Positions 8,656-36,530 of a stretch of 55,303 nucleotides of DNA are shown here, piece by piece. Position 1 is the first letter of the stretch. Each line of letters starts with the position of its first letter. The notes beneath the pieces are model-generated. The model did not search any database, had not been told where the DNA came from, and saw nothing but the letters and a program-made list of their open reading frames with translations. Source of the stretch: Candidatus Methanophaga sp. AG-394-G06 (GTDB lineage Archaea > Halobacteriota > Syntropharchaeia > Alkanophagales > Methanospirareceae); contig PRCZ01000004.1 of NCBI GenBank assembly GCA_009903405.1, positions 1-55,303 of the forward strand, given 5' to 3'. The translations under genes and the position numbers were made by a program.

Positions 8656-8868
8656 ATGTCAGACAAAGTCACGATAAAGATACCGCAGGAATTATATGAA
8701 AAGCTGCGGGAGATGATAGGAGGCACTGGATTCTCCAGTGTGACAGAATTTATCGTTTTTGTGATGCGGAGTTTAGCGTCAAGCGGAAAGCTAAAAGAAG
8801 AAGACAAGCTAACAAACGAAGAAGTAGAAGCGGTAAGAGAAAGATTGAGGAGGCTTGGATATTTATGA
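8656..8868 (+). CDS. ribbon-helix-helix (CopG-like) protein with an LGYL C-terminal tail
   Basis: VTIKIPQELYEKLREMIGGTGFSSVTEFIVFVMRSL is an RHH fold pattern. The tail is EEVEAVRERLRRLGYL. Overlaps the next ORF by 4 nt. Confidence 0.7.
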   Translation: MSDKVTIKIPQELYEKLREMIGGTGFSSVTEFIVFVMRSLASSGKLKEEDKLTNEEVEAVRERLRRLGYL

Positions 8869-9089
8869 AGAACGAAGAGGAAAAGAAAGCCGTATTTTTA
8901 CCGGCTGTGCTTTATGGCAGAATAGAAGAGCGGGTGCATGCTACGGAATTCAACTCTGTGGCGGATTATGTCTCGTATGTGATGGAAGAGATACTGAGAG
9001 AAGAAGAGAGCGAAGAAGAACCTACTTTTAGTGAAGAGGAGGAAGAAGAGGTGAAGAAGAGATTAAGAGCGTTGGGCTATTTGGAGTGA
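8865..9089 (+). CDS. second RHH-like protein with an LGYLE C-terminal tail
   Basis: VFLPAVLYGRIEERVHATEFNSVADYVSYVMEEIL, then an acidic linker, then VKKRLRALGYLE. Confidence 0.65.
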   Translation: MKNEEEKKAVFLPAVLYGRIEERVHATEFNSVADYVSYVMEEILREEESEEEPTFSEEEEEEVKKRLRALGYLE

Positions 9090-9183
9090 GTGCAAATGGA
9101 CAATATTAATAAGACACTAACTACCTTTGCGGCGATTGGTGTGAGGGGATGTTTGTGATCAGAAAGGAGATGATGAAAAGAGA

Positions 9184-9999
9184 ATGGGACTGAAAGAACT
9201 GGAGAATAAGAGCATATATATTCTGAGGGAAGCGTACGCGGAATTCGAGAACCCGGCAATTCTGTGGAGTATGGGAAAGGACAGCACAACTGCGCTATGG
9301 CTGTGTCGAAAAGCATTCTTAGGTGAAATCCCATTTCCTGTAATCCATATTGATACGGGTTACAAGTTCAAGCAGATGTATGAGTTCAGAGACAGAATAG
9401 CAGAGGAATGGGGATTTGATTTAGTAATAGCGAAGAATGAAGAAGCGATGAAAGCCGGTATGGGACCAGAAAAAGGGAAATTGGAGTGTTGCACTGCGCT
9501 TAAAACGGAAGCTTTAATGAACTATCTTGATAAGCACAGGTTTGATGCTTTGTTCTTGGCAATACGGCGGGACGAACACGGGATACGAGCGAAGGAACGT
9601 GTCTTTTCACCACGCGATGAAGAGTTCCGATGGAATTACCGCGACCAGCCGCTCGAGATGTGGGACCAGTATCAAACTCAAGGTCGAAGTGAGAAGGGTG
9701 CTGTTCAGAACCACACGCGAGTGCATCCAATTCTGCATTGGCGTGAGTTGGACGTTTGGGAATATATAAAGCAAGAGAAAGACATTCCAGTGAATCCGAT
9801 GTATTTTGCCAACGATGGTAAACGGTATAGAAGCTTAGGCTGTGAACCGTGCACTTCGCCAATAGAGTCAACTGCAAAGACGATAGATGAGGTGGTGGAA
9901 GAGCTGAGAACAACAAAAGTTGCAGAACGGTCTGGTCGCGCACAGGACAAAGAGAAGGCGTTTATGATGCAGAAGCTGAGAGCGCTTGGGTACATGTAA
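9184..9999 (+). CDS. cysD: sulfate adenylyltransferase subunit 2
   Basis: Contains the SMGKDSTT PP-loop, HIDTGYKFKQMYEFRD, RSLGCEPCT and GRAQDKE. Collinear with E. coli CysD, including the ...LRALGYM tail. Confidence 0.9.
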   Translation: MGLKELENKSIYILREAYAEFENPAILWSMGKDSTTALWLCRKAFLGEIPFPVIHIDTGYKFKQMYEFRDRIAEEWGFDLVIAKNEEAMKAGMGPEKGKLECCTALKTEALMNYLDKHRFDALFLAIRRDEHGIRAKERVFSPRDEEFRWNYRDQPLEMWDQYQTQGRSEKGAVQNHTRVHPILHWRELDVWEYIKQEKDIPVNPMYFANDGKRYRSLGCEPCTSPIESTAKTIDEVVEELRTTKVAERSGRAQDKEKAFMMQKLRALGYM

Positions 10000-10080
10000 G
10001 GAAAATGTAAAAACTAAAATGTAAAGATTAAAATGACAAATTAAAAATAAAAAAATGAAATGGGCGGTTAAAAATAAAAA
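10000..10080. repeat. A-rich heptamer-periodic element after the cysD stop
   Basis: Sequence is aaaatgtaaaaactaaaatgtaaagattaaaatgacaaattaaaaataaaaaaatg. A closely related ~45-nt copy lies at 11311-11355. Confidence 0.7.
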
Positions 10081-11322
10081 ATGGGAACTGAGAAGATGAG
10101 CGTAAATGTGGTGCTCGTAGGGCATGTGGATCATGGTAAGTCCACATTGATAGGAAGATTGCTTTACGACAGTGAGAGCATAAAGGATGAACGGGTGGAA
10201 GAGATCCAGAAATTAGCAGAAGAATATAAGCGCAAATTCGAATTCGCTTATTTTCTCGACTCTTTTGAGGATGAACTGAAAGAAGAGCGGACAATAGACA
10301 CGGTAAGTTTGATGTTTAAAGGCAAGAAGAATTTTTACACGATAACTGACGTGCCAGGGCATAAGGAGTTTATAAAGAACATGCTAACAGGCGCGTCACA
10401 TGCGGATGTAGCGGTTTTGGTGGTATCTGCAGAAGAAGGCGTGCAAGAGCAGACGAGAAGGCATATGTTCCTGCTCAAGATGCTTGGCATCAAACAGGTC
10501 TTTGTAGTTGTAAATAAGATGGATGCTGTGGAGTATAATAAAGAGCGGTTTGAAGAAGAAAAGGAACAAATAAGCAAGCTTTTGGATTCCTTTGACTACG
10601 CGACAGGAGAAATGCTCTTTATTCCCGTGTCCGCAATGGAAGGCGATAACATTTACAAGTATTCCGAGCATATGAAATGGTATGACGGTCCAACGTTGAT
10701 AGACGCATTGGATGGCGTGAGACTGGAAGGAAAAGAGAAACCATTGAGGTTTGCTGTTCAAGATATATATAAGGTAGAGGATGAAGAGACAATCGTAGGG
10801 CGCGTGGAATCGGGAATTCTAAGAAGAGCAGACAATGTAGTTTTCGAACCTTCGGGCGTCAAGGCGAAAGTAGAGAAGATAAATGTCTTTGATGGCGAAT
10901 TGGCAGAAGCTAAGGCAGGGGATAGTATTGGTATTATTATAAACGGAGGAGTGGTAAAAAGAGGTGATGTTCTTGGACTTCTGGAGAAACCGCCAAAACC
11001 TACTAATGCGTTTTTAGGCGAGGCGGTTTTGCTGGATAAGAACTTGAAAAAAGGGGAAGTAGTGGAAATAAGGTGTGGAACTGCAAAAGTAAGTGGTGAG
11101 ATAAAAGAGATAAGAGAAAAGATAGATTCAGAGACAGGAGCAGTTTTAGAGAGTAATCCAGAAGAGATAAATGAGCATGATGCGGCAACTATTGTCTTTG
11201 CGACCGAGCCGCTGGTGGTAGAGGAATTCGCGGAGATTCCGGAACTCGGACGGTTTGTTCTCGTAAAAGCTAACAGGAATATAGGGGCTGGAGTGGTCTT
11301 AAATGCAGATGTTAAAATGTAA
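10081..11322 (+). CDS. cysN: sulfate adenylyltransferase subunit 1 (GTPase), no APS-kinase domain
   Basis: EF-Tu-like motifs GHVDHGKST, DVPGH and NKMD. Adjacent to cysD. 413 aa. Confidence 0.85.
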   Translation: MGTEKMSVNVVLVGHVDHGKSTLIGRLLYDSESIKDERVEEIQKLAEEYKRKFEFAYFLDSFEDELKEERTIDTVSLMFKGKKNFYTITDVPGHKEFIKNMLTGASHADVAVLVVSAEEGVQEQTRRHMFLLKMLGIKQVFVVVNKMDAVEYNKERFEEEKEQISKLLDSFDYATGEMLFIPVSAMEGDNIYKYSEHMKWYDGPTLIDALDGVRLEGKEKPLRFAVQDIYKVEDEETIVGRVESGILRRADNVVFEPSGVKAKVEKINVFDGELAEAKAGDSIGIIINGGVVKRGDVLGLLEKPPKPTNAFLGEAVLLDKNLKKGEVVEIRCGTAKVSGEIKEIREKIDSETGAVLESNPEEINEHDAATIVFATEPLVVEEFAEIPELGRFVLVKANRNIGAGVVLNADVKM

Positions 11323-11355
11323 AAATCAAAATGGCAAGTCAAAAATAAAAAAGAA
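11311..11355. repeat. A-rich heptamer-periodic element overlapping the cysN stop
   Basis: gttaaaatgtaaaaatcaaaatggcaagtcaaaaataaaaaag. The last cysN codons (VKM*) are encoded by the element. Confidence 0.7.
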
Positions 11356-11414
11356 TGCGTTACCAAAGAAATTAAAAGGGAAGGGGTTTATATTTTATCT
11401 ACAAGTTTTGGACA

Positions 11415-12227
11415 TTGGGAGCAATGAAAGCAGTACAAAGAGATAAGGGAACATTTCTCGTATTAGGCATAGATGCGGCGACATGGGCTGTTGTGAACGC
11501 GAATTTGAGCAAGTTAAGTAATTTTGAGCGGTTGATTAAGCTTGGCAAAAGCAAAGTAATCACGCTGACGGAGAAGCCTATATCTGCATCTATCTGGTGC
11601 GGTATGTTCTCAGGTAAGCTTTTCACGGAGCACAAACATGAGAGTTATGTTGTTAATGGCGATATTGTAAAGCGAGCGGATATAAATGTGGATTTTATAT
11701 GGGATATTCTACATGCGAGAGGAAAGAATGTAAAAGCGTTGAACGTACCTTTTGTTGTGCCGCCTTATTCATTCAACGTAGATTTTAAGCCCATAGGTTT
11801 TGGATTGCCCACGAATGAAAAGGAATGGGGAGAGGAGCTGGAACGAGTTACGGAGAAGACGAAAGAACTTTTAGTGGTTGAGAAGCCGGATTTGCTCATC
11901 GCTGTTTATACGTTTTTGGATAGGATCCAGCACTTCCACTGGGGTGAGGATTACGTAGTCGAGTGGTATGAGCGAATGGATGAGAAGGTTGGAGAACTGA
12001 TATTCGATACAGGTTTCTTAGATGGGAACAACAAGTTGATTGTAATTTCAGATCATGGATTCTGTTCTTTTGGCGAAGCAAAAGTGCAGACGCTGCCGGA
12101 ATACACGAAAGATGGGCAATTGAAGGGTGATCATCATGAAGATGCTTTTTTGGTAACGGTGAACGTGGATTATGAGGTAGAGAGACCGCAGGATGTGTTT
12201 TTTGCGATTGAAGAAGAGATTGTATGA
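11415..12227 (+). CDS. small alkaline-phosphatase-superfamily (NPP-like) protein
   Basis: LVLGIDAATW and VISDHGF are metal-ligand motifs. PISASIW occupies the nucleophile position (Ser instead of Thr). 270 aa with no tail motif. Confidence 0.55.
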   Translation: MGAMKAVQRDKGTFLVLGIDAATWAVVNANLSKLSNFERLIKLGKSKVITLTEKPISASIWCGMFSGKLFTEHKHESYVVNGDIVKRADINVDFIWDILHARGKNVKALNVPFVVPPYSFNVDFKPIGFGLPTNEKEWGEELERVTEKTKELLVVEKPDLLIAVYTFLDRIQHFHWGEDYVVEWYERMDEKVGELIFDTGFLDGNNKLIVISDHGFCSFGEAKVQTLPEYTKDGQLKGDHHEDAFLVTVNVDYEVERPQDVFFAIEEEIV

Positions 12228-12331
12228 AGGATATTGATGAAGAGCGCTGTTTAAGAACTCAGCATAGATGTTCGGTTAAGGGAACTCCCAGTAAATAGTT
12301 TATCCAAAAAGTTTTGATAATTATCATACAA

Positions 12332-12479
12332 AGACACAGATTTCACAGATTTACACAGATGCTACTCTAAAGTCCCGAAAAGATTATTAAGCTTTTATGG
12401 GTTCATAAAATCAAAATTGAATTTATAAATCAATTATTGCACTACTTTAAATCTGTGTTAATCAGCGTTAATCTGTGTC
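12332..12479. repeat. T-type decamer inverted-repeat element
   Basis: Left arm is agacacagatttcacagatttacacagat and right arm is aaatctgtgttaatcagcgttaatctgtgtc, separated by an ~88-nt spacer. It lies between convergent genes. Confidence 0.75.
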
Positions 12480-12515
12480 AATAAAATACTTTTTTGCAAG
12501 AATAGCATACATAGC

Positions 12516-12959
12516 TTATTCAACAACCGCTATTACTTTGCATGGTGCATTCTTCTTCAAATCGTCTACAATTTTAGCCCGTTTCTCTACCAATATCGTA
12601 TCTACATTATATCTCTGTACCACTTCGACAACCGATTCAACAAAGGGTCCTTTAACTCTTATTGTCTCAAAGGATATGCCACGTTTTTCCGCTTCCTTTT
12701 CCAATCTGGCCAATCGCTTCGAGATGACCTCTTCCCTATCTGCGTTTATATCTACCTCTAATCGCTCTACAACCTTTTCACCAAGAAAACCCAGATCATG
12801 CGTTAACCGGGCAACCTTTTCGGCAATATTCATATCTCGCACGCTTAATATGATCAGATCGGCTTTATCTCTCGCCGCAAGATCCAGTGCCTGCATTGCC
12901 ATTTTTTTGTGGATGGAAGTAGCAGAAAATGCTACTAATATTTTAGCTTTCGTCTCCAT
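12516..12959 (-). CDS. universal stress protein (UspA family)
   Basis: 147 aa. KILVAFSATS, DLIILSV and the C-terminal VDTILVEKR...APCKVIAV fit the USP alpha/beta fold. Confidence 0.7.
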   Translation of the reverse strand: METKAKILVAFSATSIHKKMAMQALDLAARDKADLIILSVRDMNIAEKVARLTHDLGFLGEKVVERLEVDINADREEVISKRLARLEKEAEKRGISFETIRVKGPFVESVVEVVQRYNVDTILVEKRAKIVDDLKKNAPCKVIAVVE

Positions 12960-12993
12960 GATTTATCCTTATATTAAATTAAATTAAATTATA

Positions 12994-14382
12994 TTAAATT
13001 ATGTTGATACCAATTAAAGGCCAATATGTAAATACCATAATAATAAAAACTAACCATGCAGTTAAATTTAAAATGAATGCAGGCAGCAGGATTTGACGTA
13101 TCGTATAATAGCCAGCCGAATATGCAATTGCATTTGGCGGCGTGCCCATAGGCAGGATAAATGCAAGTCCTGATGGTATGGCTATCAGAAACACCATAAT
13201 TATAGGGCTTATGCCTACTATATCACCTATACTGAATCCGATGGGTATGAGAATCGCAACACATGCAGAATTACTGATTGCCTCTGTAAGGAATATAGCG
13301 ATAAGTGGTAGTATCAGAACTACAATGACCGAGGTCAACGTGATGTTATCCAAAACGGTCATAGCAGCCCATTCTGCCGCTCCTGTCGATGCCAGTGCCG
13401 ATCCGATGGCGATTGCCCCACCGTACATTAGGATTATTCCCCAGTTGACATTGGATTCCACATCTCGCCATTTCAGCACATTGAGCATGAAGAGCAAAAC
13501 AGCAGAAAGAATCGCTATTACTGCTAATCCTATTGTATTACCAATAAATATCCATGAACAGACGGTCAGCAGCATAACACACCCCGCCTTCTTTTCTGCC
13601 CTCGTTATCTTACCTACGGCTACTAGTTCAGATCTGAGTACTTCTTTTGCCGGTTTGATTGTGTGTATATCCATTTTCAAAAAAAGATTTAATATGACAA
13701 AAGCAATTGCAAGCATTACAAATACAATTGGCATCGCTGCCACCATCCACTCAAAGAAAGTTATTTCAAGACCTGTGCTTTCTTTTAATAATCCGATAGC
13801 AAGTGGGTTCCTTGCACCGCCAAGCAGCGTTCCCACACCGCCTATCACGGCACCCCAGGCCAGTGATAAAAAGAGAAGTGCACCGTAATTGCTGTTTAAC
13901 TTTTCTAAATCTAAACTGTTCGCAATCGCAGCAACCACCGGAAACATCATGGCTGCAACGGCGTGTTCCGGCATTATAAAGGATAAAAATGCGCACGTTA
14001 GCATTATGCCAGCCAACAATTTACGGGGTGTGCTGTCAAATTTATTGAGCATAAGCAAAGCAATTCTTTTGCTTAAGCCTGTCTCAATCATTGCAGCGGC
14101 AAGGATGAAAGCACCAAGGATAAAGAATACCGCTGAGTTTCCAAAAAGAGCAAAAGCCTCTTTACTCGGCATCACGCCTAGTAGAGGAAGAAGAGCGATT
14201 ACAAACAGACCCGTCACAGAAAGGGGCAGCGCGTTTGTTATCCACAGAATAATAGCACATGCAAAGATCCCTATTGCATTTTTCGCTTCCGTAGACAGTC
14301 CTGTCGGTGCAGGCGATACCACAAAAACTGCAAGTACGAGTAATGAAAAAGCTATGATGATATATTGTCCTTTTCTATTCAT
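12994..14382 (-). CDS. DASS/SLC13-family anion permease (candidate sulfate transporter)
   Basis: 462 aa and polytopic, with hairpin motifs of the SNxx type (TEAISNSACVAIL). The gene context is cysDN. Confidence 0.7.
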   Translation of the reverse strand: MNRKGQYIIIAFSLLVLAVFVVSPAPTGLSTEAKNAIGIFACAIILWITNALPLSVTGLFVIALLPLLGVMPSKEAFALFGNSAVFFILGAFILAAAMIETGLSKRIALLMLNKFDSTPRKLLAGIMLTCAFLSFIMPEHAVAAMMFPVVAAIANSLDLEKLNSNYGALLFLSLAWGAVIGGVGTLLGGARNPLAIGLLKESTGLEITFFEWMVAAMPIVFVMLAIAFVILNLFLKMDIHTIKPAKEVLRSELVAVGKITRAEKKAGCVMLLTVCSWIFIGNTIGLAVIAILSAVLLFMLNVLKWRDVESNVNWGIILMYGGAIAIGSALASTGAAEWAAMTVLDNITLTSVIVVLILPLIAIFLTEAISNSACVAILIPIGFSIGDIVGISPIIMVFLIAIPSGLAFILPMGTPPNAIAYSAGYYTIRQILLPAFILNLTAWLVFIIMVFTYWPLIGINII

Positions 14383-16764: not shown

Positions 16765-18636
16765 GAGGCTGTCCAACAATTACCAAACAACCAACAGATA
16801 ATATTTCCTGCACAGATATAAAAAGCAGTTTTTCTTCTCAACACCCCTTCACTTTATAGCCATATCTAACACGAATTGCAAAAGCGCATCCTAAAAATTA
16901 ATGAATTTCGATTCCAAGCGAAAAGAAACCGAAAAGCTTTTATTGCTGCACGTACAATTATACTTAGCTTATAAAAGCGAGGTGATGACGAGAAATGGCG
17001 ATAAGGGATGATAAAATGGGGCAGTCGTGGCTATTGCCCCCTGATATTAGTGAACTCATACCGGTAGACCACATCTGCTACCTGGTTATTGCAATCGTGA
17101 ATGGCATAGATGTTAGTGAAATAGAGGAGAAGTACAGGTTCAAACCGGGCAATTCGGCGTATCCGCGGCGGATGCTGCTCCGACTGCTGGTGCAGGCGGC
17201 AATCGATGGCGTATGGTCCTCCAGAAAGATTGATAAGTTGGCGCTCGAGAACGTGGTCTACATGTACCTGGCAGGGAACGAGAAGCCCGACTTTAGAACG
17301 CTATGTAAATTCCGATCGGAGAACAAAGAGCTGATCGAGGCTACCTTCGAGAAAACCGTCACCTTTGCTAAAGCATTGGGAATAGCGAAGTTGGGTCACC
17401 TCTCGACCGATGGTACCAAGATGAAAGCCAATGCCTCAAACAGCTACACGCTGAGTAAGGAGGAGATAAAGGCGATAAGGGAGATAATAGAGCGCGGAAT
17501 CGCAATAGACGAAGAAGAGGATAAACTCTACGGGGATAAGCGGGGTGACGAGCTGCCGCCCGAACTCAATACGCAGCAGAAGATTCGTGAGAAGCTAAAA
17601 GAAATTGAACAAGCCTCTAACAGGAAATTGAGGAGTGCCGCAAAGAATATTATCGAGCAGCATGCGCTTGGTGATGAGCTGCAGAAGGAGCAGATTATTG
17701 AAAAGCTTGATAAGGCTGAAGAAGAGCTAAATACGAGTGGACAGAGATCTGTAAGTATAACTGACCCTGAAGCAAGATTTATGAAGAACAAGAAGGAGCG
17801 AATCGAATTGTCATACAACCCGCAAATCACCGTAGATCACGATTCGGGGATAATCGTTGCCAATGACGTTACACAGGATTGCACTGACCACGCGCAGTTA
17901 GAGCCGCAGGTGAATAGTACGCTGGAAAATGTGGGGGAACTGCCGGAAGGTGCAAAACTGAGCTTTGATAACGGATATTTCAGTGGTGCTAACCTGCGAT
18001 ACCTGGAGACGAACGGGTTAGACGCCTATATTCCAGACCGCAAGCAGGCGGGGGAGATGAAGGGAAATAAGCCGAAGCTGAGCCCATTCTCGAAGGATTC
18101 GTTCGATTATGACGAAGAAAAAGACCAGTTTTTATGCCCCAATGGAGGGATACTCAGCAGAAAGGGCGAATATGAGTATAACGGTAAGCAGGTGTACGCC
18201 TATTATGGTGCGAACTGTGGTGAATGCCCGTTCCGGGCGGAATGCGCGGGTGAAGGCAAAACAAGGGTGATTACCAGTGACGGCTACGAGGGTGAACGCC
18301 GTAGGATGACAGCTAAAATGCGGTCGGAGGCGGGTAAAGAGGCGTACAAAAAGCGTAAGGAGACTGTTGAATGGCCTTTCGGTAACATCAAGCAGAATCT
18401 GAAGTTCCGTGAATTCCTGACACGTGGAATAGAGAAGGTTAGGGTAGAGCATAATCTGGTATGCACAGCGCACAATTTGAAGGTAATATGGGGTAAGTTG
18501 GAGAGGAATGTGCCGATCATCAGTACGATTCGGACGTTAGTAGCTAATTCGGTATCTAAAGTAGGGAGTTTTTTACGTGTTCACGCAATAATTAACTTTA
18601 AGTGTCAGTGTTGATAATTAATTGGGGGACAGCCTC
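16765..18636 (+). mobile_element. IS element (IS1182/IS5-like), 1872 bp
   Basis: Terminal inverted repeats are GAGGCTGTCC/GGACAGCCTC. A 4-bp direct duplication AAAC lies at 16761-16764 and 18637-18640. Removing the IS restores the rmlC frame. Confidence 0.85.
16995..18614 (+). CDS. DDE transposase (IS1182/IS5 family)
   Basis: N-terminal InsH-like region (LLPPDISELIPVDHICY, RRMLLRLLV), then STDGTKMKANAS and FDNGYFS DDE-type motifs. Confidence 0.8.
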   Translation: MAIRDDKMGQSWLLPPDISELIPVDHICYLVIAIVNGIDVSEIEEKYRFKPGNSAYPRRMLLRLLVQAAIDGVWSSRKIDKLALENVVYMYLAGNEKPDFRTLCKFRSENKELIEATFEKTVTFAKALGIAKLGHLSTDGTKMKANASNSYTLSKEEIKAIREIIERGIAIDEEEDKLYGDKRGDELPPELNTQQKIREKLKEIEQASNRKLRSAAKNIIEQHALGDELQKEQIIEKLDKAEEELNTSGQRSVSITDPEARFMKNKKERIELSYNPQITVDHDSGIIVANDVTQDCTDHAQLEPQVNSTLENVGELPEGAKLSFDNGYFSGANLRYLETNGLDAYIPDRKQAGEMKGNKPKLSPFSKDSFDYDEEKDQFLCPNGGILSRKGEYEYNGKQVYAYYGANCGECPFRAECAGEGKTRVITSDGYEGERRRMTAKMRSEAGKEAYKKRKETVEWPFGNIKQNLKFREFLTRGIEKVRVEHNLVCTAHNLKVIWGKLERNVPIISTIRTLVANSVSKVGSFLRVHAIINFKCQC

Positions 18637-23535: not shown

Positions 23536-25095
23536 ATGTCCGAAAACGTAAACCAATCGCTCAAAAAAATGGCAAAAGGCACTGGTATAGTTTTTATCGG
23601 TTCTTTAGCAGGCGTATTTCTTGCTTTTATTGGCAGGCTTATGATTGCCAGATACGGGACTGTGAGTGAATACGGTGTCTTTTCCCTGGCATTAGTAATA
23701 CTGAACATCTGTGTTGTTATAAGTACCTTGGGGCTACAAAACGGAGTCACTCGCAGCATTGCCTATGCAAGAGGAAAAAATGAGAATGAAAAAATTCAGG
23801 GGTTTATTTCCGCTTCTATCTGGCTTAGTCTTGCAGCGAGCTTCATACTATGTTTTATCCTTTTCTTCGCATCGGAGACTATTGCAGTAAACATTTTCCA
23901 TGAGCCTGCTCTTATCGCTCCATTAAAGATATTCTCCATAGCCATACCGTTTTTCACCTTAAGCAGTGTCATTGTCTCCATATTCCTAGGATTTGGTCGT
24001 GTCCAAGCAAAGGTTTACTTCCAGGACATCCTGAGAAATGTACTTTTCCCGCTACTCTTGTTAGCTGTTATTCTCCTAAGTCTATCTTTCACCAGCGTCT
24101 TTTATGCTTACACAGTATCCTTAGCCGTTCCGTGCCTTCTTCTTGTAATCTATACCGTTAAATACCTACCCTCGTCAATAAAATTTACTGCTAAACAGAC
24201 TAATAATGCTAATCCCGTAGCCAAGGAACTTTTATTTTTTTCGCTCCCTCTACTAGGTGTGGCTATGCTGGGAATGATAATCGCTTGGACGGACACTTTA
24301 ATGCTCGGAAGTTTTAAAAGTACAGCGGAAGTGGGCATATATAATGCTGCACATCCTTTAGCCAATTTTATTTCCTCACCTTTAAGTGCTTTATTGGTGA
24401 TCTACATGCCGATTACTTCAGGTCTATATGCTCAGGGACTGATGCCAGAAATGAGAAGAAACTTCGCTATTTTGACCAAGTGGCTCTGCTCACTTACCTT
24501 GCCGTTATTTCTCATCCTATTTCTGTTTTCCGAAACGGTATTAAACTTCCTCTTCGGCGCCAGCTACATTTTTGCTGCAAATGCTCTTAGAATCTTGTCT
24601 TTGGGGTATTTTGTCAATAATTTCGTGGGACCTAACGGCGCTACTCTAACTGCTATAGGTAAAGTTCGATTTCTAATGTGGGCCACTTTAGCCACTGCCG
24701 TTCTTAATATCGGGTTGAATATTGCTCTAATTCCGCCTTTAGGCATTGTAGGTGCTGCCATCGCTTCTGTGGTTGCCATAACCTTTATCAATCTGATAAG
24801 ATGCTGGAAACTCTACTCGCTTACGGAAGCACAGCCACTGAGTAAAAATCTAATAAAGCCAACTTTAGTTTCTCTGACGTTGATATTTCTTATTTACTTT
24901 GTTTCCATAGAGTTTATTACCGTTACCCTATGGATGCTCCCTCTGCTCTTCATACTCTACTATGTCATCTATGGCTCGGCCATCTTGCTGACAAAGAGCT
25001 TTGACCAAGAAGACATAACAATGCTGCTGGCGATAGAAAAACGGACTGGCATAAATGCTGCTCCAATAAAGAAGTTTTTGAACAAGTTTCTATAA
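23536..25095 (+). CDS. Wzx-type polysaccharide flippase (MOP superfamily)
   Basis: 519 aa with about 14 TM segments. The N-terminal KGTGIVFIGSLAG is typical of polysaccharide biosynthesis proteins. Confidence 0.75.
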   Translation: MSENVNQSLKKMAKGTGIVFIGSLAGVFLAFIGRLMIARYGTVSEYGVFSLALVILNICVVISTLGLQNGVTRSIAYARGKNENEKIQGFISASIWLSLAASFILCFILFFASETIAVNIFHEPALIAPLKIFSIAIPFFTLSSVIVSIFLGFGRVQAKVYFQDILRNVLFPLLLLAVILLSLSFTSVFYAYTVSLAVPCLLLVIYTVKYLPSSIKFTAKQTNNANPVAKELLFFSLPLLGVAMLGMIIAWTDTLMLGSFKSTAEVGIYNAAHPLANFISSPLSALLVIYMPITSGLYAQGLMPEMRRNFAILTKWLCSLTLPLFLILFLFSETVLNFLFGASYIFAANALRILSLGYFVNNFVGPNGATLTAIGKVRFLMWATLATAVLNIGLNIALIPPLGIVGAAIASVVAITFINLIRCWKLYSLTEAQPLSKNLIKPTLVSLTLIFLIYFVSIEFITVTLWMLPLLFILYYVIYGSAILLTKSFDQEDITMLLAIEKRTGINAAPIKKFLNKFL

Positions 25096-26103
25096 CTTGC
25101 CCGATTTCTTAAGCTTTCTTATTACATCTTTAGCTCTTTCTCTTTCTGCATCAACCATTGGTAGACCAAACTTTTTAACGATTTCTGCTGTATTCGATGC
25201 ACTCTTTACGCTTTTGATCTTAAACCAGGGAACTTCGACAAGTATAGGTTCTCTACTTCCATGAGGATGGGAATACCTCCTATCTTCTCCAAGCAATTCT
25301 CCGTGATCGGCAGTAATTACAATTCTGCTTGAAGGCCGATCATGTAATATCTTACGAGATAGCTCTGCAACATATCCTAAGGCAATACCAAGGTTTTCTT
25401 TATATGCTTCTCTTAAACCTTCTACACCATATTTTCTTCTTACCGCATCCATTGGAGATGCAGGAGGTAATTTTAACATTTCTCTTAGCTCCCATGTATT
25501 TTTAATAATGTTGGTTTTTACTAACAAAGCACCGAGTATATTTACTACTCGTTCGACAGTTCTATTAGTTTGATCTCCTTGAACCCCAGATAAAGGACCT
25601 TTTGTAAAGGGATTTGAAAAACCTTTCACAAAAAACTCTTGTGAGATATAGGGGGCATGTGGTTGTAAATAATGTATTATAAATCTCTTTTCCGAGTACT
25701 TTTCAATTAAGCTTAAAGTAGAATCGTTAATTTCATGAGGTGGAACAGTTCCTAATTTCTCATCCCACCCAAATGCCCACACGTCGGCAACTTTATAGAA
25801 GTGCTTTTTTGCGTCAAATTCTGCCACTTTTACCTTTGAGTTGATGTATGGATTCCCGGATACATATATAACATCCGGGTAATAGCTCTGAAAGGATTTT
25901 TGACACCACTCTGGAGTGCAAGAACCAATAGAAACTCTCTTTTCCAAATCTCCTGAAAAATAATCGCTAATCATGTTTGCGAAATAATCATATCGACATG
26001 CATCTAAAAGTATAAGATTATCCCAGTCCTCATCCATAATTTTTAAGACTCCTGTCAACTGCATCCCTCCCTTTTCAACGCTATGCAAATCATATTTCCT
26101 CAA
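25090..26103 (-). CDS. alkaline-phosphatase-superfamily protein (337 aa) with a basic C-terminal tail
   Basis: LILLDACRYD, GSCTPEW and ITADHGE. The tail is AKDVIRKLKKSGKL. Confidence 0.55.
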   Translation of the reverse strand: MRKYDLHSVEKGGMQLTGVLKIMDEDWDNLILLDACRYDYFANMISDYFSGDLEKRVSIGSCTPEWCQKSFQSYYPDVIYVSGNPYINSKVKVAEFDAKKHFYKVADVWAFGWDEKLGTVPPHEINDSTLSLIEKYSEKRFIIHYLQPHAPYISQEFFVKGFSNPFTKGPLSGVQGDQTNRTVERVVNILGALLVKTNIIKNTWELREMLKLPPASPMDAVRRKYGVEGLREAYKENLGIALGYVAELSRKILHDRPSSRIVITADHGELLGEDRRYSHPHGSREPILVEVPWFKIKSVKSASNTAEIVKKFGLPMVDAERERAKDVIRKLKKSGKL

Positions 26104-26109
26104 TCCTGT

Positions 26110-27732
26110 TTATAACCTACCCGATTCCTTTAGCTTTTTTATCTGATCTTTAACCTTTTCCCTTTCCATATCAACTGCTTGATACCTTACCGCCCTCTGT
26201 GCTGGTTCGCTTCCCTCCTTGAAAATCTCCTTTAACAGCCGGCCATCCATGTCATCTGGAACTGACAAACCAAACATATGTAAGATTGTTGGAGCTATGT
26301 CATAGATTTTAGCTCCTTGTATTTGAACCTCTTCTTTAATATCTGGACCATAAGCAATAAAGACCCCCTCTTTTTTATGCGCCCCACTATAAACAGGGTT
26401 GGGTGAAGGCTTCTGATAGACCTCTTTATTAAAGCCAAAGTAAATACTGCACTCGAAATCATCTATTTCAAACAAGATATTGGGAGCGAGATTTACATAC
26501 TCCCCCAAGTAAAGTTCGTCAGGCGAATAGACCCTTACCGAAACACCTAGGTTACTGCAAGTCTTTTTAAGCTTTTCAATTATTTCATCCTTAAGGACAT
26601 TAGAGTCATGATAGCCTCTACTTGAAAGAATTGCCGGTTCATTCAGGCAAATTTTCCCCACCAAAGAAGCATTAACCGGAGCAAAAGCCAGACTCCTTTT
26701 GAAGTCTACTTCAGCGGTGACTGGTATACTATGCACTCTCCCCGACTGGACTGCTTTGATCAATTTATCATGCAAAGCAGGGGAGATTTTTCTTATCAAA
26801 TTAGCAACGGCTCGTTGTAGCTGACGCAACTTAATGAGTTCGCTTCTCTTCTTAAGGTAGCCCTCTTTTTCCAGCCAAGAATTCGTGTAAAAAGAGCTTC
26901 GATGTGGACCAAAACCATGATCTGAAACAATTAAAATGTTTGTTTTTTGTGACGTTGCTTTCACTACCAAACTTATGATTTTATCTATTCTCTGCCAAAT
27001 CTGAACAAAAGCAGGTTTATACTTTTCCGCCCCCTCCTCGGAATAATACGGATGAGTAGGATCAATGTATCTCCACATATAATGTTGAGTAAAGTCCGAA
27101 GCGGAGATCACAAAGGTAATTACTTCCAAGTCTTGCTTCAGTAAAAGCTGCATAGTTTTGTAGTTTATTTCTATAAGGTCAAAGATATGTTCGACAAAAA
27201 GTGAAGGGTTTTCAGTATAAAGGGGGTCATGCCAGGGCACAACTATTCGATAATTGCCACAATTTTCGATTAATAGCTGCTTAAATTCCTTTGGATAGGA
27301 AATATCATCTCTCGGATCGCTCCCCAGCCCTGAAACCATGATCCCGTTGATTTTATAGGGCGGATATAAACAGGGGTAATTTACTACACCCGTCTTTATT
27401 CCGGCATGGCTTAGGTAATCCCAATAAGGCTTTGCTTTTCTTATCTCTGAAGAACTCACGGCTTTAGTCTCAAAGCCATCGCTACTGATTCGGTTTAAGA
27501 AATCAAACACTCCAGTTTTTCCTGGGTTCTTCCCGGTAGCTAGTGCTGGCCATGCAGGACCAGTAACTGGTGGGAAGGTACTTTCCAGTGTTCCGTGCAC
27601 ACCATTTGTTATCAATTTCTTTAGAGTTGGTAACTTTCCCTCATCACTTAGAGGATTAATTACACGAAAAGTTGCTCCATCCAAACCTATAATTAGCAGT
27701 TTAATCATCTTTCTTTTCCCTACGCCCTCCAT
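26110..27732 (-). CDS. type I phosphodiesterase/nucleotide pyrophosphatase-like enzyme (COG3379-like)
   Basis: IIGLDGATF, PPVTGPAWPALATG (Thr nucleophile) and IVSDHGF. The tail is VKDQIKKLKESGRL. Confidence 0.75.
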   Translation of the reverse strand: MEGVGKRKMIKLLIIGLDGATFRVINPLSDEGKLPTLKKLITNGVHGTLESTFPPVTGPAWPALATGKNPGKTGVFDFLNRISSDGFETKAVSSSEIRKAKPYWDYLSHAGIKTGVVNYPCLYPPYKINGIMVSGLGSDPRDDISYPKEFKQLLIENCGNYRIVVPWHDPLYTENPSLFVEHIFDLIEINYKTMQLLLKQDLEVITFVISASDFTQHYMWRYIDPTHPYYSEEGAEKYKPAFVQIWQRIDKIISLVVKATSQKTNILIVSDHGFGPHRSSFYTNSWLEKEGYLKKRSELIKLRQLQRAVANLIRKISPALHDKLIKAVQSGRVHSIPVTAEVDFKRSLAFAPVNASLVGKICLNEPAILSSRGYHDSNVLKDEIIEKLKKTCSNLGVSVRVYSPDELYLGEYVNLAPNILFEIDDFECSIYFGFNKEVYQKPSPNPVYSGAHKKEGVFIAYGPDIKEEVQIQGAKIYDIAPTILHMFGLSVPDDMDGRLLKEIFKEGSEPAQRAVRYQAVDMEREKVKDQIKKLKESGRL

Positions 27733-31726: not shown

Positions 31727-33353
31727 TTGGTAACTACTCAGGTCAGTCAAAAAGGAGGATGGACGTAGTGTCTTTAATGCAATTCAAGATGCATTTTTGT
31801 GTAATCCGTTTATTTCCTTCCTTCTTTTACAAGAAATAGTCAGGGGGGGGTGACAGTATCTCCGAAAGCCTATATTTTCTCTTATGCGTAATAATGCCGT
31901 TGCACAATACTTGTATCCTGCATAAACAGGAGAATTAAAAAGATATCTCTAAAAGAATCAGCGTAAAAAATTGAAATACTGATAAAAGATCTTTTAGTAG
32001 TTGTACGGCAATTCTACTAGCATGGGATATTCAGTAGTGGATTTCTTGGTATCTTCTCTGTTTCGATGGATATTCAGCGAAAAACATCCATTAGGGAATG
32101 CAGAATACTCTCCTGGTGCATTCGTACGACTTCTGATGAATGCAGCGCAGGCGAAGGATTACGTTGAGACTATTAGCGGCATTGATCAGGGATTGCCAAA
32201 CGTTGACACACTTTTTTGGCGATTATCCGAGTGTGCCAGCAGGGATCTGATATTGCGTGAATACAAAAAAGTTGTGAAAAGGCACATCGAAGCGGCGAAG
32301 GGGCAGATAAGAAGAAGGCGATTTATTATAGCAATTGATGAGACCCATGAGCCTTTTTACGGGCGGATAAAGAATCTATGGATCCATGATTACAGAAATG
32401 GTGTCAAAGGTGCTACTGGTTCATACAAATACATCGTTGTATCTATTGTATCAGGCAATTTGAGATTCATCCTTCTTGTCATACCTATCCCTAAAATAAG
32501 CAATGATACGGATTACTACGTGAAAGAGCTGCTAATATTCGTAAAATCGCTCATACCAACCGAGATCGTCCTTCTTGACCGGGGATTCTACTCATGGGGC
32601 GTCATAAAGGTTTTACAAAAACTCAAACTGGGATATATACTCTTGGTTCCGAAATACGACAAGTTCAAGGAATGGTTAAAGAAAGGTGCGGGATTGCACG
32701 ATCATCAGGGGAAACTGAAGAGAGACAAGACAACATACAAAATAAGCACATGTATTGCGATATTGCCGGACTATAAAGGTTTTGACTGGGTTTTTGCAAC
32801 AAATATCAAATATGATAAGATTTTCAGATACGTGCGCTATTATAAGAAGAGGTGGGGTATAGAAACCACGTTTAGAGTGCAGGATGAGGTCAAAATCAAG
32901 ACAAAATTGTTAATACCCCTGATACGGATCGCACTCTTCGTATTCGAGTGCATGCTGTATAATGTATGGCAGTTCTTCAAGGGGCGTGTTCCGTTCAGGA
33001 GATTTGTTAATATCCTGTTCAGGAGGCACATCATCAAAACAGCGGTATTTGCAATCATTGAGCTCATCGGAGAGAAGGATATTCTGGACGATAAAGGTCC
33101 GCCCCCAGACAAGATTTATGGGGAGTTAATTGGAAAATTTGGCTATATTGATGGAGTTAGCTTATAGCAAGGCGGTTAATGTGACTTTTTTGCGGTTTTT
33201 ACTTATTTCTACCGCTTAATTTGCGGACCACCCTTGCATCGAAGGGTTAATGGGCAATATATGCTCGATTATATTTGTTAGATACACTTAAAATCGGTTA
33301 TTTTGTTAATATATCTAAAATATATTCGGAGATACTGGGTGGGTAGTTACTAA
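31727..33353 (+). mobile_element. ISH3-family IS (boundaries approximate)
   Basis: The outer inverted pair is ttggtaactac/gtagttactaa (31727-31737, 33343-33353). A second inverted pair, cagtatctccgaa/ttcggagatactg, lies at 31854-31866 and 33325-33337. No clear target duplication. Confidence 0.55.
32001..33167 (+). CDS. ISH3-family (IS4 superfamily) DDE transposase
   Basis: FIIAIDETHEPFYG, VLLDRGFYS and YYKKRWGIETTFR. The likely start is the ATG at 32022. Confidence 0.8.
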   Translation: MYGNSTSMGYSVVDFLVSSLFRWIFSEKHPLGNAEYSPGAFVRLLMNAAQAKDYVETISGIDQGLPNVDTLFWRLSECASRDLILREYKKVVKRHIEAAKGQIRRRRFIIAIDETHEPFYGRIKNLWIHDYRNGVKGATGSYKYIVVSIVSGNLRFILLVIPIPKISNDTDYYVKELLIFVKSLIPTEIVLLDRGFYSWGVIKVLQKLKLGYILLVPKYDKFKEWLKKGAGLHDHQGKLKRDKTTYKISTCIAILPDYKGFDWVFATNIKYDKIFRYVRYYKKRWGIETTFRVQDEVKIKTKLLIPLIRIALFVFECMLYNVWQFFKGRVPFRRFVNILFRRHIIKTAVFAIIELIGEKDILDDKGPPPDKIYGELIGKFGYIDGVSL

Positions 33354-33376: not shown

Positions 33377-35425
33377 CTTGACTTTCGGAGATAGTATTTT
33401 ATCACTTAAATAATTTTCCATTTGATGAGGTTATCCGCCATTTTTTAACGGAAATACGCCACAGGAGGCCATATCTTCTATTTCGCCCATACCCAAATGT
33501 ACTGACTAAAAGTCACGTTTGAAAAAGTCGTGGTGAATGTCGTGTAAATTCAAAACTCCCCATTGTTAGACAATAAAATAGAAAGCTTTATAAGCATGTA
33601 ATGACTAAACTAATTTATGCATTTCGTCAAGAAGAAGGTGGCGGGGAAGACATATCTTTCCATCGCCGAGACGCATCGAGTGAATGGAGTTCCTAAGACG
33701 TCCATTGTTAAATACGTGGGCTCTGCTGAGAAATTATTCAAAATACTAATCGGTCTGGATAAAGAAGAAACCGAATACCACCGCAGATACAAATTTGCGG
33801 CGCCGCTGGCAATACATCAAATAGCAGAGGAAATTAGGCTAATCGAAACAATCAACAGGCACACAAAGAAAAGGGAGCAGGGCTTCTCTGTCGGAGAATA
33901 TCTTCACATTATTACCTTGAATCGGGCATTATATCCAAGAAGCAAAAGGGGAATAAAAAGGTGGTATGAAAGAACCATTCTCCCCTTCATTTTGAGGATT
34001 CCGCCGGAAAAACTCACGAGCCAGGTTTTTTGGGAACACATGGAATATCTGAACGAGGAAGAGATTGAGCGGATCGAAAAAGAGCTCAGTTCCAGGATTA
34101 TAAAGCTATACGACCTCAACACAGAGTGCCTGTTGTATGACATCACCAATTTCTACACTTTTATCCAGGAACACGAGGGCAACGAACTACCAAAAAAGGG
34201 TAAAAGCAAGGCTAAACGCTTCGATTTGAATCAGATTAATCTCGCTCTGCTTGTCACAAAAGATGGTGGAATCCCGCTTATGCATCAGACCTACGAAGGG
34301 AACAGGCATGACGCAAAAAAATTCCCCGAAATTATCAGTAAACTCACAGACAGGCTAGTAATGTTCTCCAAAAACGTAGATAAAGTCACGATAGTCTTTG
34401 ACAAAGGAAATAACTCCAAAGCTAGCATGAATCTGCTTGACGACACCCCTTATTATTTCGTTGGATCGCTCAGGCCCTATGACTACAAGCATTTTCTGGA
34501 AATACCACTGGAGAAATTCCAGTTGGTTCCAATGGAAAATGGAGAAGAAGATAAGAAAAAGGATGATATATACGCTTATCGCACGCGAGAAGATGCTTTT
34601 GGTGCGGAAAGGACAGTTGTTGTAATTTACGAGCAGAAACTTTATCATAGGAACCTGAAAACCTTCATAAAAGGTATTGACAAGAGGAAGAAGGAGTTTG
34701 AGGAGCTCGAATCGAAGATAGGACGGCGAAGATACAGAACAAAGTCGGCGATTGAGAAGAAAGCGGAAAAGATACAGGCAAAAGCTCCTGATGGGCTTTT
34801 CGATGTTGTGGTCGGCGAAGAAGAGGGTAACGTAACGCTTGATTACGCGGTGAACAAAACCGTCTACAAAGAGAAGCTTAAATCGTTTGGAAAAATGATT
34901 CTTTTCACGAATAATCACGAATGGAGTACCGCACAGATAATAAGGGTTTATCGGGGTAAAGCTAAGATAGAAGATGACTTCAAAAGGATGAAGAGCCCAA
35001 TAATGATCAGTCTAGAGCCCGTGTACCACTGGACGGACCAGAAGATAAGGGTGCATGTCTTTTGTTGTGTTCTCGCATTAATGCTATTACTGATCCTGAA
35101 ACGCAAATTAGAGATGGTTGGCATTAAATTGAGCCTTGAAAGGATGATAGAGGAGCTTTCTGATGTTCAACTCTCCGTTATCAAGTTTTATGATGTGGAT
35201 AAGAGGTTATGTCTCCTTAATGACATGAATGAGGAGCAGAAGGCGATGTTTGATGTATTGGATCTGATGCGGTATAAGAAGTTAGTCAGTACAAAGTTAC
35301 ATTAGCTCTTTTATACCGCATTTCACAGGATGCCTGAAATGTCGCCTATGGGAAATTGAAAGACTGTGATGGGAAAAATGGTGCTGTTAAATATTTCTTT
35401 AATTTATATAACTCCGAAAGTCAAG
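33377..35425 (+). mobile_element. IS1634-family IS, 2049 bp
   Basis: Terminal inverted repeats are CTTGACTTTCGGAG/CTCCGAAAGTCAAG. A 5-bp direct duplication TTATT lies at 33372-33376 and 35426-35430. Confidence 0.8.
33617..35305 (+). CDS. IS1634-family transposase
   Basis: 562 aa. KKKVAGKTYLSIAETHRVNG is typical of the IS1634 N-terminus, with IVFDKGNNS and a C-terminal DDE region. Confidence 0.75.
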   Translation: MHFVKKKVAGKTYLSIAETHRVNGVPKTSIVKYVGSAEKLFKILIGLDKEETEYHRRYKFAAPLAIHQIAEEIRLIETINRHTKKREQGFSVGEYLHIITLNRALYPRSKRGIKRWYERTILPFILRIPPEKLTSQVFWEHMEYLNEEEIERIEKELSSRIIKLYDLNTECLLYDITNFYTFIQEHEGNELPKKGKSKAKRFDLNQINLALLVTKDGGIPLMHQTYEGNRHDAKKFPEIISKLTDRLVMFSKNVDKVTIVFDKGNNSKASMNLLDDTPYYFVGSLRPYDYKHFLEIPLEKFQLVPMENGEEDKKKDDIYAYRTREDAFGAERTVVVIYEQKLYHRNLKTFIKGIDKRKKEFEELESKIGRRRYRTKSAIEKKAEKIQAKAPDGLFDVVVGEEEGNVTLDYAVNKTVYKEKLKSFGKMILFTNNHEWSTAQIIRVYRGKAKIEDDFKRMKSPIMISLEPVYHWTDQKIRVHVFCCVLALMLLLILKRKLEMVGIKLSLERMIEELSDVQLSVIKFYDVDKRLCLLNDMNEEQKAMFDVLDLMRYKKLVSTKLH

Positions 35426-35529: not shown

Positions 35530-36530
35530 TTTCCACCCTCTAATAATGTTTTATACAAATTTAGGTGTTTCATAGCGATATTAGCCCAAGAATATTTATC
35601 TCTTTCACATTCAGCAAGTTTGATTAATTTTTTTCTAATTTTTTCATCACTACAAAATTTAATAATAGCTTCTTTTAGATCTTGAGTAGATTCAACAATC
35701 AGTCCCGCATTTTTGACAATTTCTGAAAAAGATCCGATATTCGAACATATAACGGGCTTCCCAGCACATATAGCCATCGCCATAGGATAGCTACTCTCTC
35801 CAACTGAATTTAGCCTATAGTTAATTAGAATATCCGACAACTCAATATAGTGGATAAACTTTCTATCATCCACGAATCCCACATAAATAATACTCTTATC
35901 AGATAAATTTCGGAGTTCGATTTGAGATTCTTTATCAACTGCTTTCCCAACAACTAATAACTTGGCATTTCTCAGGTTTAAATCTCTAAAAATTTTTATA
36001 ACTTCTAGTTGCCCTTTCGCTTTTTTTACAAAACCGGCCATTAGTAATATGATATCATCGTCTGAGAAACCATATTCTCTCCTCAACTTTTTTATGTCAT
36101 ATCTTTCAAAAATTGTACATCCGATAGGAATGACTGAAATTCTCTCAATGGAAATAAATGGAGCTACCTGCAATAATAATCCTTTTGCAAATTCTGAGTG
36201 GACAATAAATTCATCTAAGAATAAATCCAAATATCTATAGATAATCCGTGTAAACCAAATCGGTATTTTCTTTGTTCGTGGGATCACATCATGAATTGTT
36301 ATTACCTTTACTTTCGACCGAAATATCGGTAATGTTACTAAAACAAATCTAGTTGAGTTTGCTACATGAAAATGGGCTATGTCATATTTTTTAAAAAAAT
36401 TAATTTCCCTCCAATTTCTTAGTTCCACTATGCGACCTTTATCTATTCCCTCAAGTTTCTGAACTAAATGAGTTATATAAAACAAAATTCCTCTTGAATT
36501 TTTATCAGTTATGTGTTGTATTTTCATCAT
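35526..36530 (-). CDS. GT4-family glycosyltransferase
   Basis: 334 aa. The C-terminal half has GFVDD, NSVGESSYPMAMAICAGKPVICSNIG and KYSW. Confidence 0.75.
   Translation of the reverse strand: MMKIQHITDKNSRGILFYITHLVQKLEGIDKGRIVELRNWREINFFKKYDIAHFHVANSTRFVLVTLPIFRSKVKVITIHDVIPRTKKIPIWFTRIIYRYLDLFLDEFIVHSEFAKGLLLQVAPFISIERISVIPIGCTIFERYDIKKLRREYGFSDDDIILLMAGFVKKAKGQLEVIKIFRDLNLRNAKLLVVGKAVDKESQIELRNLSDKSIIYVGFVDDRKFIHYIELSDILINYRLNSVGESSYPMAMAICAGKPVICSNIGSFSEIVKNAGLIVESTQDLKEAIIKFCSDEKIRKKLIKLAECERDKYSWANIAMKHLNLYKTLLEGGK

Follow-up and report, generated by a model that had tools for sequence, protein, structure and literature searches.

A contig of Candidatus Methanophaga sp. AG-394-G06, an anaerobic methanotrophic archaeon of the ANME-1 group, carries a predicted sulfate-activating gene pair and a small enzyme of the alkaline phosphatase (AP) superfamily where an island of surface-sugar genes begins. 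The window analyzed here is the whole of this stretch (GenBank PRCZ01000004.1, positions 1 to 55,303; 55,303 nucleotides), which is contig C64 of a 1.53-Mb metagenome-assembled genome (MAG) with a completeness of 75%. The pair consists of CysD and a GTPase resembling elongation factor EF-1alpha, and the small enzyme has the fold of the nucleotide pyrophosphatases/phosphodiesterases (NPP). This coupling of sulfate activation to an AP-fold enzyme is a conserved, real feature, and it is independent of the kinase that phosphorylates adenosine 5'-phosphosulfate (APS) and of the sulfotransferases that use 3'-phosphoadenosine 5'-phosphosulfate (PAPS). As judged from the sequences, the genes form what is, on balance, probably a PAPS-independent cassette, complete in itself, for sulfating a glycan of the cell surface. 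The genes are, by position in the window and strand:

8656-8868 (+): RHH1, ribbon-helix-helix (RHH) protein, 70 aa; PF01402, 25.5 bits; C-terminus ..RLRRLGYL; presumed regulator
8865-9089 (+): RHH2, paralogue of RHH1, 74 aa; C-terminus ..RLRALGYLE
9184-9999 (+): CysD, PP-loop catalytic subunit of a heterodimeric ATP sulfurylase, 271 aa; NF003587; C-terminus ..KLRALGYM
10081-11322 (+): EF-1alpha-like GTPase, CysN analogue, 413 aa; GTP_EFTU, D2 and eEF1A_C domains, without an APS-kinase domain
11424-12227 (+; alternative start 11415): short AP/NPP-fold metalloenzyme, 267 aa; PF01663; Ser54
12516-12959 (-): Usp, universal stress protein, 147 aa; PF00582, 34.1 bits; downstream of the DASS gene
12994-14382 (-): DASS/SLC13 anion symporter, 462 aa; TIGR00785, PF00939; presumed sulfate importer of this sub-lineage

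An earlier note on this DNA had described these seven genes as a single module. All seven were found by profile searches of the window's proteins, but the Usp and DASS genes lie on the minus strand, convergent with the operon, which leaves no co-transcription with it. The 270-aa NPP-like protein that the note placed after the GTPase gene is also present, with a likelier ATG start at 11424, behind GGGAG, that shortens it to 267 aa. The ATG of RHH2 overlaps the stop codon of RHH1 (ATGA), and the two proteins are 35% identical (tblastn); RHH2 had no match to the Pfam RHH models.

Gene order and distribution of the cassette

The genomic surroundings of the short AP enzyme were compared in 80 loci, whose genes were annotated with reference proteins. 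In most of the 80 loci with enough flanking sequence, the genes were arranged in the order RHH1, RHH2, a TSUP/TauE permease or PstS-like ABC transporter, CysD, GTPase, and AP enzyme, and in many of them the stop codon of the GTPase gene overlapped the start of the AP gene. This arrangement is far beyond chance, as the gene order is shared by most of 80 independent loci from two domains. The carriers included ANME-1, many Dehalococcoidia/Chloroflexota, and Aenigmatarchaeota and other DPANN archaea, and further copies were found in Hadesarchaea, Ca. Methanohalarchaeum, Hydrothermarchaeales, and one Heimdallarchaeote. The module was always located in a glycan cluster, adjoined by genes for a flippase, AglB/STT3, GlmS, NDP-sugar dehydrogenases, glycosyltransferases, and rml functions; the gene that adjoined it was AglB in several loci. 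Sulfatase-fold proteins and long AP proteins were also among the neighbors, within 10 kb in about 20 of the 80 loci.

The composition of the cassette varied around one fixed member. On a complete 0.83-Mb DPANN chromosome, an RHH-CysD-AP set lies beside UDP-sugar dehydrogenases, and the GTPase, a sulfatase-fold protein, and a second PF01663 protein are all absent from that chromosome. Other variants were RHH-AP-CysD-like sets without the GTPase, permease-AP pairs without CysDN, and AP enzymes paired with PP-loop proteins intermediate between CysD and CysH (29-40% identity). A bacterial locus (L009:5329-8774) contained an RHH1 homologue, two small proteins, the GTPase (33% identity), and the short AP enzyme (41% identity) without CysD. 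The short AP enzyme is the only constant, defining member of the cassette.

In some carriers CysD has decayed. It is truncated in a Dehalococcoidia locus (L027:8328-9517) and contains in-frame stops in two ANME-1 genomes (G058:C128:14858-15670 and G060:C46:7832-8644), which fits a dispensable island function. In one Chloroflexota lineage, a gene for a 130-aa 23S_rRNA_IVP (four-helix-bundle) protein is encoded between the cysD and GTPase genes (L005:6309-6701).

The short NPP-fold enzyme and the predicted sulfate-activating pair

The short AP enzyme matched PF01663 with 43.2 bits (cut-off 23). Its family had 794 homologues at 70-97% identity and a length of 250-280 aa throughout; the copies from ANME-1 and from Dehalococcoidia/Chloroflexota are 70% identical, and below about 50% identity the family merges into "AlkP superfamily" proteins of about 500 aa. 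D17, S54, D166, H170, D210, H211, and H237 were invariant across relatives down to 23% identity. The aspartates and histidines are the canonical two-metal ligand set, and S54, the serine of the PISASIW motif that the earlier note had assigned to the nucleophile position, does stand there in the alignment. An AlphaFold2 model of the protein (pLDDT 95.7) has the NPP core, and its best Foldseek matches were ENPP6, Xanthomonas (Xac) NPP, ENPP5, and phosphonoacetate hydrolase (E 4e-10 to 1e-9; TM 0.6-0.72 on the query; 10-17% identity), with a probability of 1.00 to ENPP6 and Xac NPP. A sequence search of the PDB gave no meaningful match.

The short AP enzyme thus resembles these four proteins in fold and in having the six metal ligands and the nucleophile at the same topological positions. 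It differs from the characterized NPPs, which are about 380-400 aa long and use Thr, in that it is a minimal core of 267 aa with a Ser nucleophile, lacking their catalytic domain of about 380 aa or more, and in that it is operon-linked to the predicted synthesis of APS. It is also taken as cytoplasmic, unlike them, since neither a signal peptide nor a membrane segment was seen when the sequence was read by eye. A literature search for COG3379 returned no functional study; the match concerned mobile-element DNA primases.

CysD scored 331.6 bits against NF003587, the CysD subfamily model, well over the cut-off of 195, and was below the cut-offs of NF009214 (259 vs 413) and TIGR02039 (256 vs 397). 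It aligned over most of its length with PDB 1ZUN chain A from P. syringae (224.7 bits), and its PP-loop, S29-x-G31-K32-D33-S34, carries the S-x-G-K-D-S motif and was invariant in 20 module CysD sequences. From these matches CysD is predicted to form APS from ATP and sulfate. In contrast to 1ZUN_A, the cassette CysD lacks about 34 residues (chain residues 233-266), and unlike the CysD of other CysDN systems it ends in ..LRALGYM, a tail held in common with the RHH proteins.

The GTPase retains invariant G1-G5 motifs (GHVDHGKS, DxPGH, NKMD, and SA) as well as domains II and III. A translational-type GTPase is encoded beside CysD in most of the 80 loci, an arrangement like that of the known CysD-CysN systems (E. 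coli cysDNC, 1ZUN, NodP-NodQ, mycobacterial CysD-CysNC), where the GTPase gene is likewise directly downstream of a PP-loop CysD. The earlier note named this gene cysN, but the protein scored 303.2 bits against the CysN model TIGR02034, under its cut-off of 336.1, and is not closer to CysN than to EF-1alpha. It scored 407 and 384 bits against the NCBIfam EF-1alpha models, both under their own cut-offs, and unlike the GTPase of CysDN systems it was nearer to archaeal EF-1alpha (337 bits) than to bacterial CysN (1ZUN_B, 209 bits) among PDB entries. The true elongation factor EF-1alpha of the host is encoded on contig C42 and is 42% identical to the module GTPase. A complex prediction of CysD, GTPase, and AP enzyme gave a score almost equal to that of a control in which the GTPase was replaced, and so speaks neither for nor against binding.

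A published tree puts the ANME-1 copies with CysN (PMC6286981). A quick maximum-likelihood tree covered only 48 module GTPases and the host EF-1alpha, which served as the outgroup. From the root, the DPANN copies branched off, then those of Hadesarchaea, then those of Dehalococcoidia, and the ANME-1 copies formed a monophyletic clade (support 100) nested among the Dehalococcoidia (node supports 89-94). Because of this nesting, cross-domain transfer of the cassette is clear. The bacterial origin proposed in the earlier note agrees with the position of the ANME-1 clade, but not with the EF-1alpha-like character of the GTPase or with its deepest branches, which are archaeal (DPANN, Hadesarchaea).

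The spacers after cysD (9997-10080) and after the GTPase gene (11320-11423) are A-rich, with repeated AAAATG(T)AA units; in other lineages the genes overlap or abut at these places. The spacer between the AP and Usp genes (12271-12400) contains a repeat of about 60-130 bp, copies of which, at 81-95% identity, occur on at least eight other contigs, including C22, C30, C32 (two), C41, C53, C65, and C67. An Rfam search of the whole window found no family.

Independence from APS kinase and PAPS sulfotransferases

Profile searches of the window found no cysC, cysH, or sulfite reductase, in agreement with the earlier note, and no APS kinase or Sat was encoded within 10 kb of the AP gene in any of the 80 loci. 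Six of 20 carrier genomes contained a full-length APS kinase match, which was a canonical CysC in three and of the ANME-1/Alkanophagales type in the other three. The remaining 14, including the complete DPANN chromosome and Chloroflexota genomes of 2.7-3.5 Mb, contained neither a full-length APS kinase nor a PF13469 protein. PF13469 sulfotransferases were confined to the three canonical-CysC genomes (G015, G019, and G020) and were absent from the other 17. In those three, CysC is encoded beside Sat and PF13469 in a separate locus of its own, and in two of them the AP gene has no CysDN of its own. Five genomes have no CysD beside the AP gene; elsewhere, one of them encodes a module-type CysD, two encode Sat, and the other two gave only weak CysD-like PP-loop matches. 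Six of the 20 carriers had no PF00884 match, including the complete DPANN chromosome, and among the five of these that were searched, the short AP enzyme was the sole PF01663 protein in two, the DPANN chromosome and a partial 0.7-Mb genome. The cassette is independent of APS kinase and PAPS sulfotransferases across these genomes.

A genome-wide search for PAPS-dependent sulfotransferases, as the earlier note had proposed, found no PF00685, PF13469, or PF03567 protein in the host MAG; the PF03567 control gave no match anywhere. CysD was the sole PAPS_reduct match, so the MAG had no CysH, and it also had no NIR_SIR domain and no Sat. These absences are provisional at 75% completeness. The earlier note's statement that the window lacks APS kinase holds, but an APS-kinase-like gene (PF01583, 86 bits) is located elsewhere in the genome, at C59:3575-4027 (L001:1495-2040), directly after cdhD. 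Short pieces (about 120-155 bp) of the AP-enzyme and GTPase genes, 75-84% identical in DNA, are scattered over other contigs of the host (C59:5150-5278, C60:6521-6722, C107:175-296, and C119:17668-17829), one of them 1 kb away from the APS-kinase-like gene.

A survey of 68 genomes of the order, 23 of them of high quality, separated the cassette from this kinase-like gene. The short AP enzyme was found in 18 of the 68 genomes (5 of the 23) and CysD in 20, two with in-frame stops and one a fragment; 16 genomes had both, usually on one contig. The cassette is a strain-variable, accessory island gene set in ANME-1. The APS-kinase-like gene, which stands beside cdhD in the host, was found in 63 of the 68 genomes and in all 23 of high quality, and Sat in just two, both of the second family, with none in the first. 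More than 40 genomes have the APS-kinase-like gene without any known ATP sulfurylase. Since it is present whether or not any ATP sulfurylase is, it is a core gene decoupled from the cassette, and for the same reason it was ruled out as the cassette's partner.

Surface-glycan island and a proposed sulfation route

Downstream of the cassette, the island encodes rmlA, rmlB, and rmlD (a set interrupted by an insertion sequence, IS), a GDP-mannose dehydratase, a Wzx-type flippase, glycosyltransferases, DegT aminotransferases, and a UDP-sugar dehydrogenase, together with a 540-aa PF01663 protein and a 497-aa sulfatase-fold protein. A GT4/GT1 glycosyltransferase split into adjacent frames of 268 and 126 aa (36527-37719, minus strand) is probably a pseudogene. 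The other features of note are:

26110-27732 (-): long AP/NPP-family protein, 540 aa; PF01663, 117 bits; basic tail ..IKKLKESGRL
40962-42455 (-): sulfatase-fold protein, 497 aa; PF00884, 153 bits; T-A-P-C-I motif; basic C-terminal tail
16995-18614, 32001-33167, and 33617-35305: three IS transposases that break up the island; one lies between rmlB and rmlD

The closest known parallel is in Halobacterium salinarum, where Agl30 (VNG1056C) and Agl31 (VNG1057C) are sulfatase-like N-glycan sulfotransferases of the AP superfamily, encoded in an N-glycosylation cluster and required for sulfating the sugar (PMC11980604). The authors do not name a sulfate donor, nor do they describe a linked CysDN; they give 5G2U and 6HHM as the nearest structures of Agl30 and Agl31 (PMC11980604). 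As with Agl30 and Agl31, the window's short AP, long AP, and sulfatase-fold proteins are all members of the AP superfamily in a glycan cluster, and no PAPS-type sulfotransferase fold is involved. The 497-aa protein can be likened to them by family (PF00884) and by structures, as it matches 5G2T/5G2U and 6HHM among others. Aligned with a Ser-type sulfatase, it carries Thr in place of the nucleophile and Ile in place of the Arg, and because T-A-P-C-I takes the place of the (C/S)-x-P-x-R formylglycine motif, it is not a hydrolytic formylglycine sulfatase. It is a candidate for a second, Agl30/Agl31-like transferase, and the long AP protein, which has counterparts beside the module in 11 or more other loci, is an associated candidate for modifying glycans. 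The short AP enzyme differs from Agl30 and Agl31 in belonging to the NPP branch (PF01663), in being half the size, and in its Ser nucleophile.

RHH1, RHH2, and CysD end in [KR]-L-R-x-L-G-Y-[LM], and these were the only three of 11,202 host open frames of at least 50 aa to do so. The same tail was found on these proteins in about 50 other loci, including loci without the GTPase. The long AP protein, a 337-aa protein (25090-26103), and the sulfatase-fold protein have a related basic tail (..KLKxSG[KR]L, ..KLRYGKGRI), and related tails occur on neighbors in Dehalococcoidia and DPANN loci; one long AP protein, for example, ends in RLKRMGYL. Neither the short AP enzyme nor the GTPase ends in such a tail. 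Against the short AP family profile, the 337-aa protein gave an E value of 0.059, with only the xDHG motif aligned. Through the shared tail the activation genes are linked with the other AP-fold enzymes, and a common docking site or membrane targeting may be its role.

The DASS carrier belongs to the DASS/SLC13 family (TIGR00785, 300.2 bits, cut-off 198.6; PF00939, 231 bits), and the Usp and DASS pair also follows the AP gene in the closest relative of the window (L011). In other loci a TSUP/TauE permease or a PstS-like ABC transporter is encoded inside the operon instead. Because these transporters fill the slot elsewhere, sulfate is, by analogy, the presumed substrate of the DASS carrier.

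In the route proposed here, an anion permease (DASS with its Usp partner in the window, TSUP/TauE or PstS-like ABC elsewhere) would import sulfate, and CysD, driven by the EF-1alpha-like GTPase, would convert sulfate and ATP to APS. The short NPP-fold enzyme would then take APS at its two-metal Ser54 site and pass the sulfuryl group to a sugar or to a lipid- or nucleotide-linked glycan precursor, either by itself or by handing over to the tail-bearing AP-fold and sulfatase-fold enzymes of the island; the two RHH proteins would regulate the operon. In cysDNC, cysNC, and nodPQ, the function encoded after the GTPase gene or fused to it is an APS consumer, which pulls an unfavorable sulfurylase equilibrium. 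The short AP gene likewise stands directly after the GTPase gene, although it encodes an NPP-fold enzyme rather than an APS kinase and its operon, unlike cysDNC, is accessory and lies in glycan islands. It is predicted to consume APS because it occupies the APS-consumer position, is the sole constant member, and is the sole candidate APS user in minimal genomes. The idea of the earlier note that it carries out an unconventional step at the level of APS is favored by the comparative evidence. Given the glycan context and the precedent of Agl30 and Agl31, sulfuryl transfer to a glycan precursor is its most likely reaction. A more specific version is tentative and, taken as a whole, would have to be called improbable at present: the short NPP-fold enzyme may be the founder of a new class of APS-dependent, PAPS-independent sulfotransferases, acting through a covalent Ser-sulfate or by direct in-line transfer at the two-metal site, with the shared tail of the other proteins assembling it with its partners and the cassette forming the donor side for AP-superfamily glycan sulfation in archaea and Chloroflexota.

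Several observations weigh against the proposed route. NPP-type enzymes normally attack phosphorus rather than sulfur, and we know of no characterized precedent for a Ser-O-sulfate intermediate; hydrolysis of APS or pyrophosphate (PPi) is chemically more conventional. A doubtful but serious alternative is therefore that the short AP enzyme is a servicing hydrolase, removing PPi to draw the unfavorable CysD reaction forward or destroying surplus APS, PAPS, or 3'-phosphoadenosine 5'-phosphate (PAP), while the sulfatase-fold and long AP enzymes transfer sulfate from APS or another donor. The short AP enzyme shares its fold and metal site with the nucleotide pyrophosphatases/phosphodiesterases, Agl30 and Agl31 belong to the sulfatase type, and sulfatase-like or long AP proteins are encoded in the window and, within 10 kb of the module, in about 20 of the 80 loci. 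However, no other recognizable APS user was found by PF00884 and PF01663 searches of the DPANN chromosome and the partial 0.7-Mb genome, an APS destroyer translationally coupled to the APS makers would be futile, and the very strong conservation, with archaeal and Chloroflexota copies 70% identical, points to a specific substrate or partner. The cargo itself may also be questioned. DASS carriers move carboxylates too, the DASS gene runs opposite to the operon and was seen only in the window and L011, and the PstS-like binding protein of some loci (71 bits, below cut-off) would suit another oxyanion. The few loci like L009 that have the AP enzyme and GTPase without CysD are not explained by the model. 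These variants, those with CysD/CysH-intermediate proteins, and the phosphoryl or nucleotidyl transfer usual in NPP chemistry would fit a module for another tetrahedral oxyanion, or for phospho- or nucleotidyl transfer onto a glycan with CysD as a generic adenylyltransferase. This is unlikely, as the window CysD clears the cut-off of the CysD subfamily model and aligns over most of its length with a sulfate adenylyltransferase subunit of known structure, Sat is encoded elsewhere in two of the five genomes whose AP gene is not beside CysD, and DASS, TSUP, and ABC carriers, unrelated types that have each been proposed to carry sulfate, share one slot.

The published interpretation of these genes is assimilatory. 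Yu et al. 2018 listed CysDN, APS kinase, and an APS/PAPS-reductase homologue for ANME-1 and reported CysN and APS-kinase peptides in seep metaproteomes (PMC6286981), and the APS-kinase-like gene of the host leaves a PAPS route possible for ANME-1. If the cassette served ordinary assimilation, CysDN would make APS, the core kinase would convert it to PAPS for reduction to sulfide, and the glycan context would be coincidental. The survey and the absences in the host argue against this role, which is considered very unlikely: CysD and the AP enzyme occur in less than a third of the 68 genomes and are absent from many that are 95-99% complete, two CysD copies are pseudogenes, the kinase-like gene is present regardless of ATP sulfurylase, CysH and NIR_SIR were not found in the host MAG, and the module, always in glycan islands, is also carried by reduced DPANN genomes. 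Sulfation of a glycan rather than assimilation, as the earlier note had reasoned from context, is the better account of this distribution. The ANME comparative paper of Chadwick et al. 2022 does not mention CysN, PAPS, or sulfation, and the literature searched contained nothing on APS-dependent sulfotransferases or on glycan sulfation in ANME-1.

To our knowledge, all characterized biological glycan O-sulfation runs through PAPS. The cassette is like the PAPS-dependent pathways of rhizobial Nod-factor and mycobacterial sulfolipid synthesis in placing dedicated sulfate activation genes in a surface-glycoconjugate locus, and unlike pathways that lead from Sat or CysDN through CysC to PF00685 or PF13469 enzymes in having no APS kinase or PAPS sulfotransferase in the locus or in most carrier genomes. 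If the proposed route is true, it would be a second route of glycan sulfation, with APS as the donor and ATP sulfurylase coupled directly to an AP-fold enzyme, and it would provide the donor machinery still lacking for the recently discovered AP-superfamily N-glycan sulfotransferases of haloarchaea. Standing between EF-1alpha and CysN, the module GTPase is relevant to the proposal that CysN arose from an archaeal EF-1alpha. Most carriers of the core APS-kinase-like gene of ANME-1 have neither CysD nor Sat. Genes of ANME-1 that have been counted as sulfate assimilation would be re-read as a strain-variable decoration of surface glycans, which matters for models of sulfur use in methane-oxidizing consortia.

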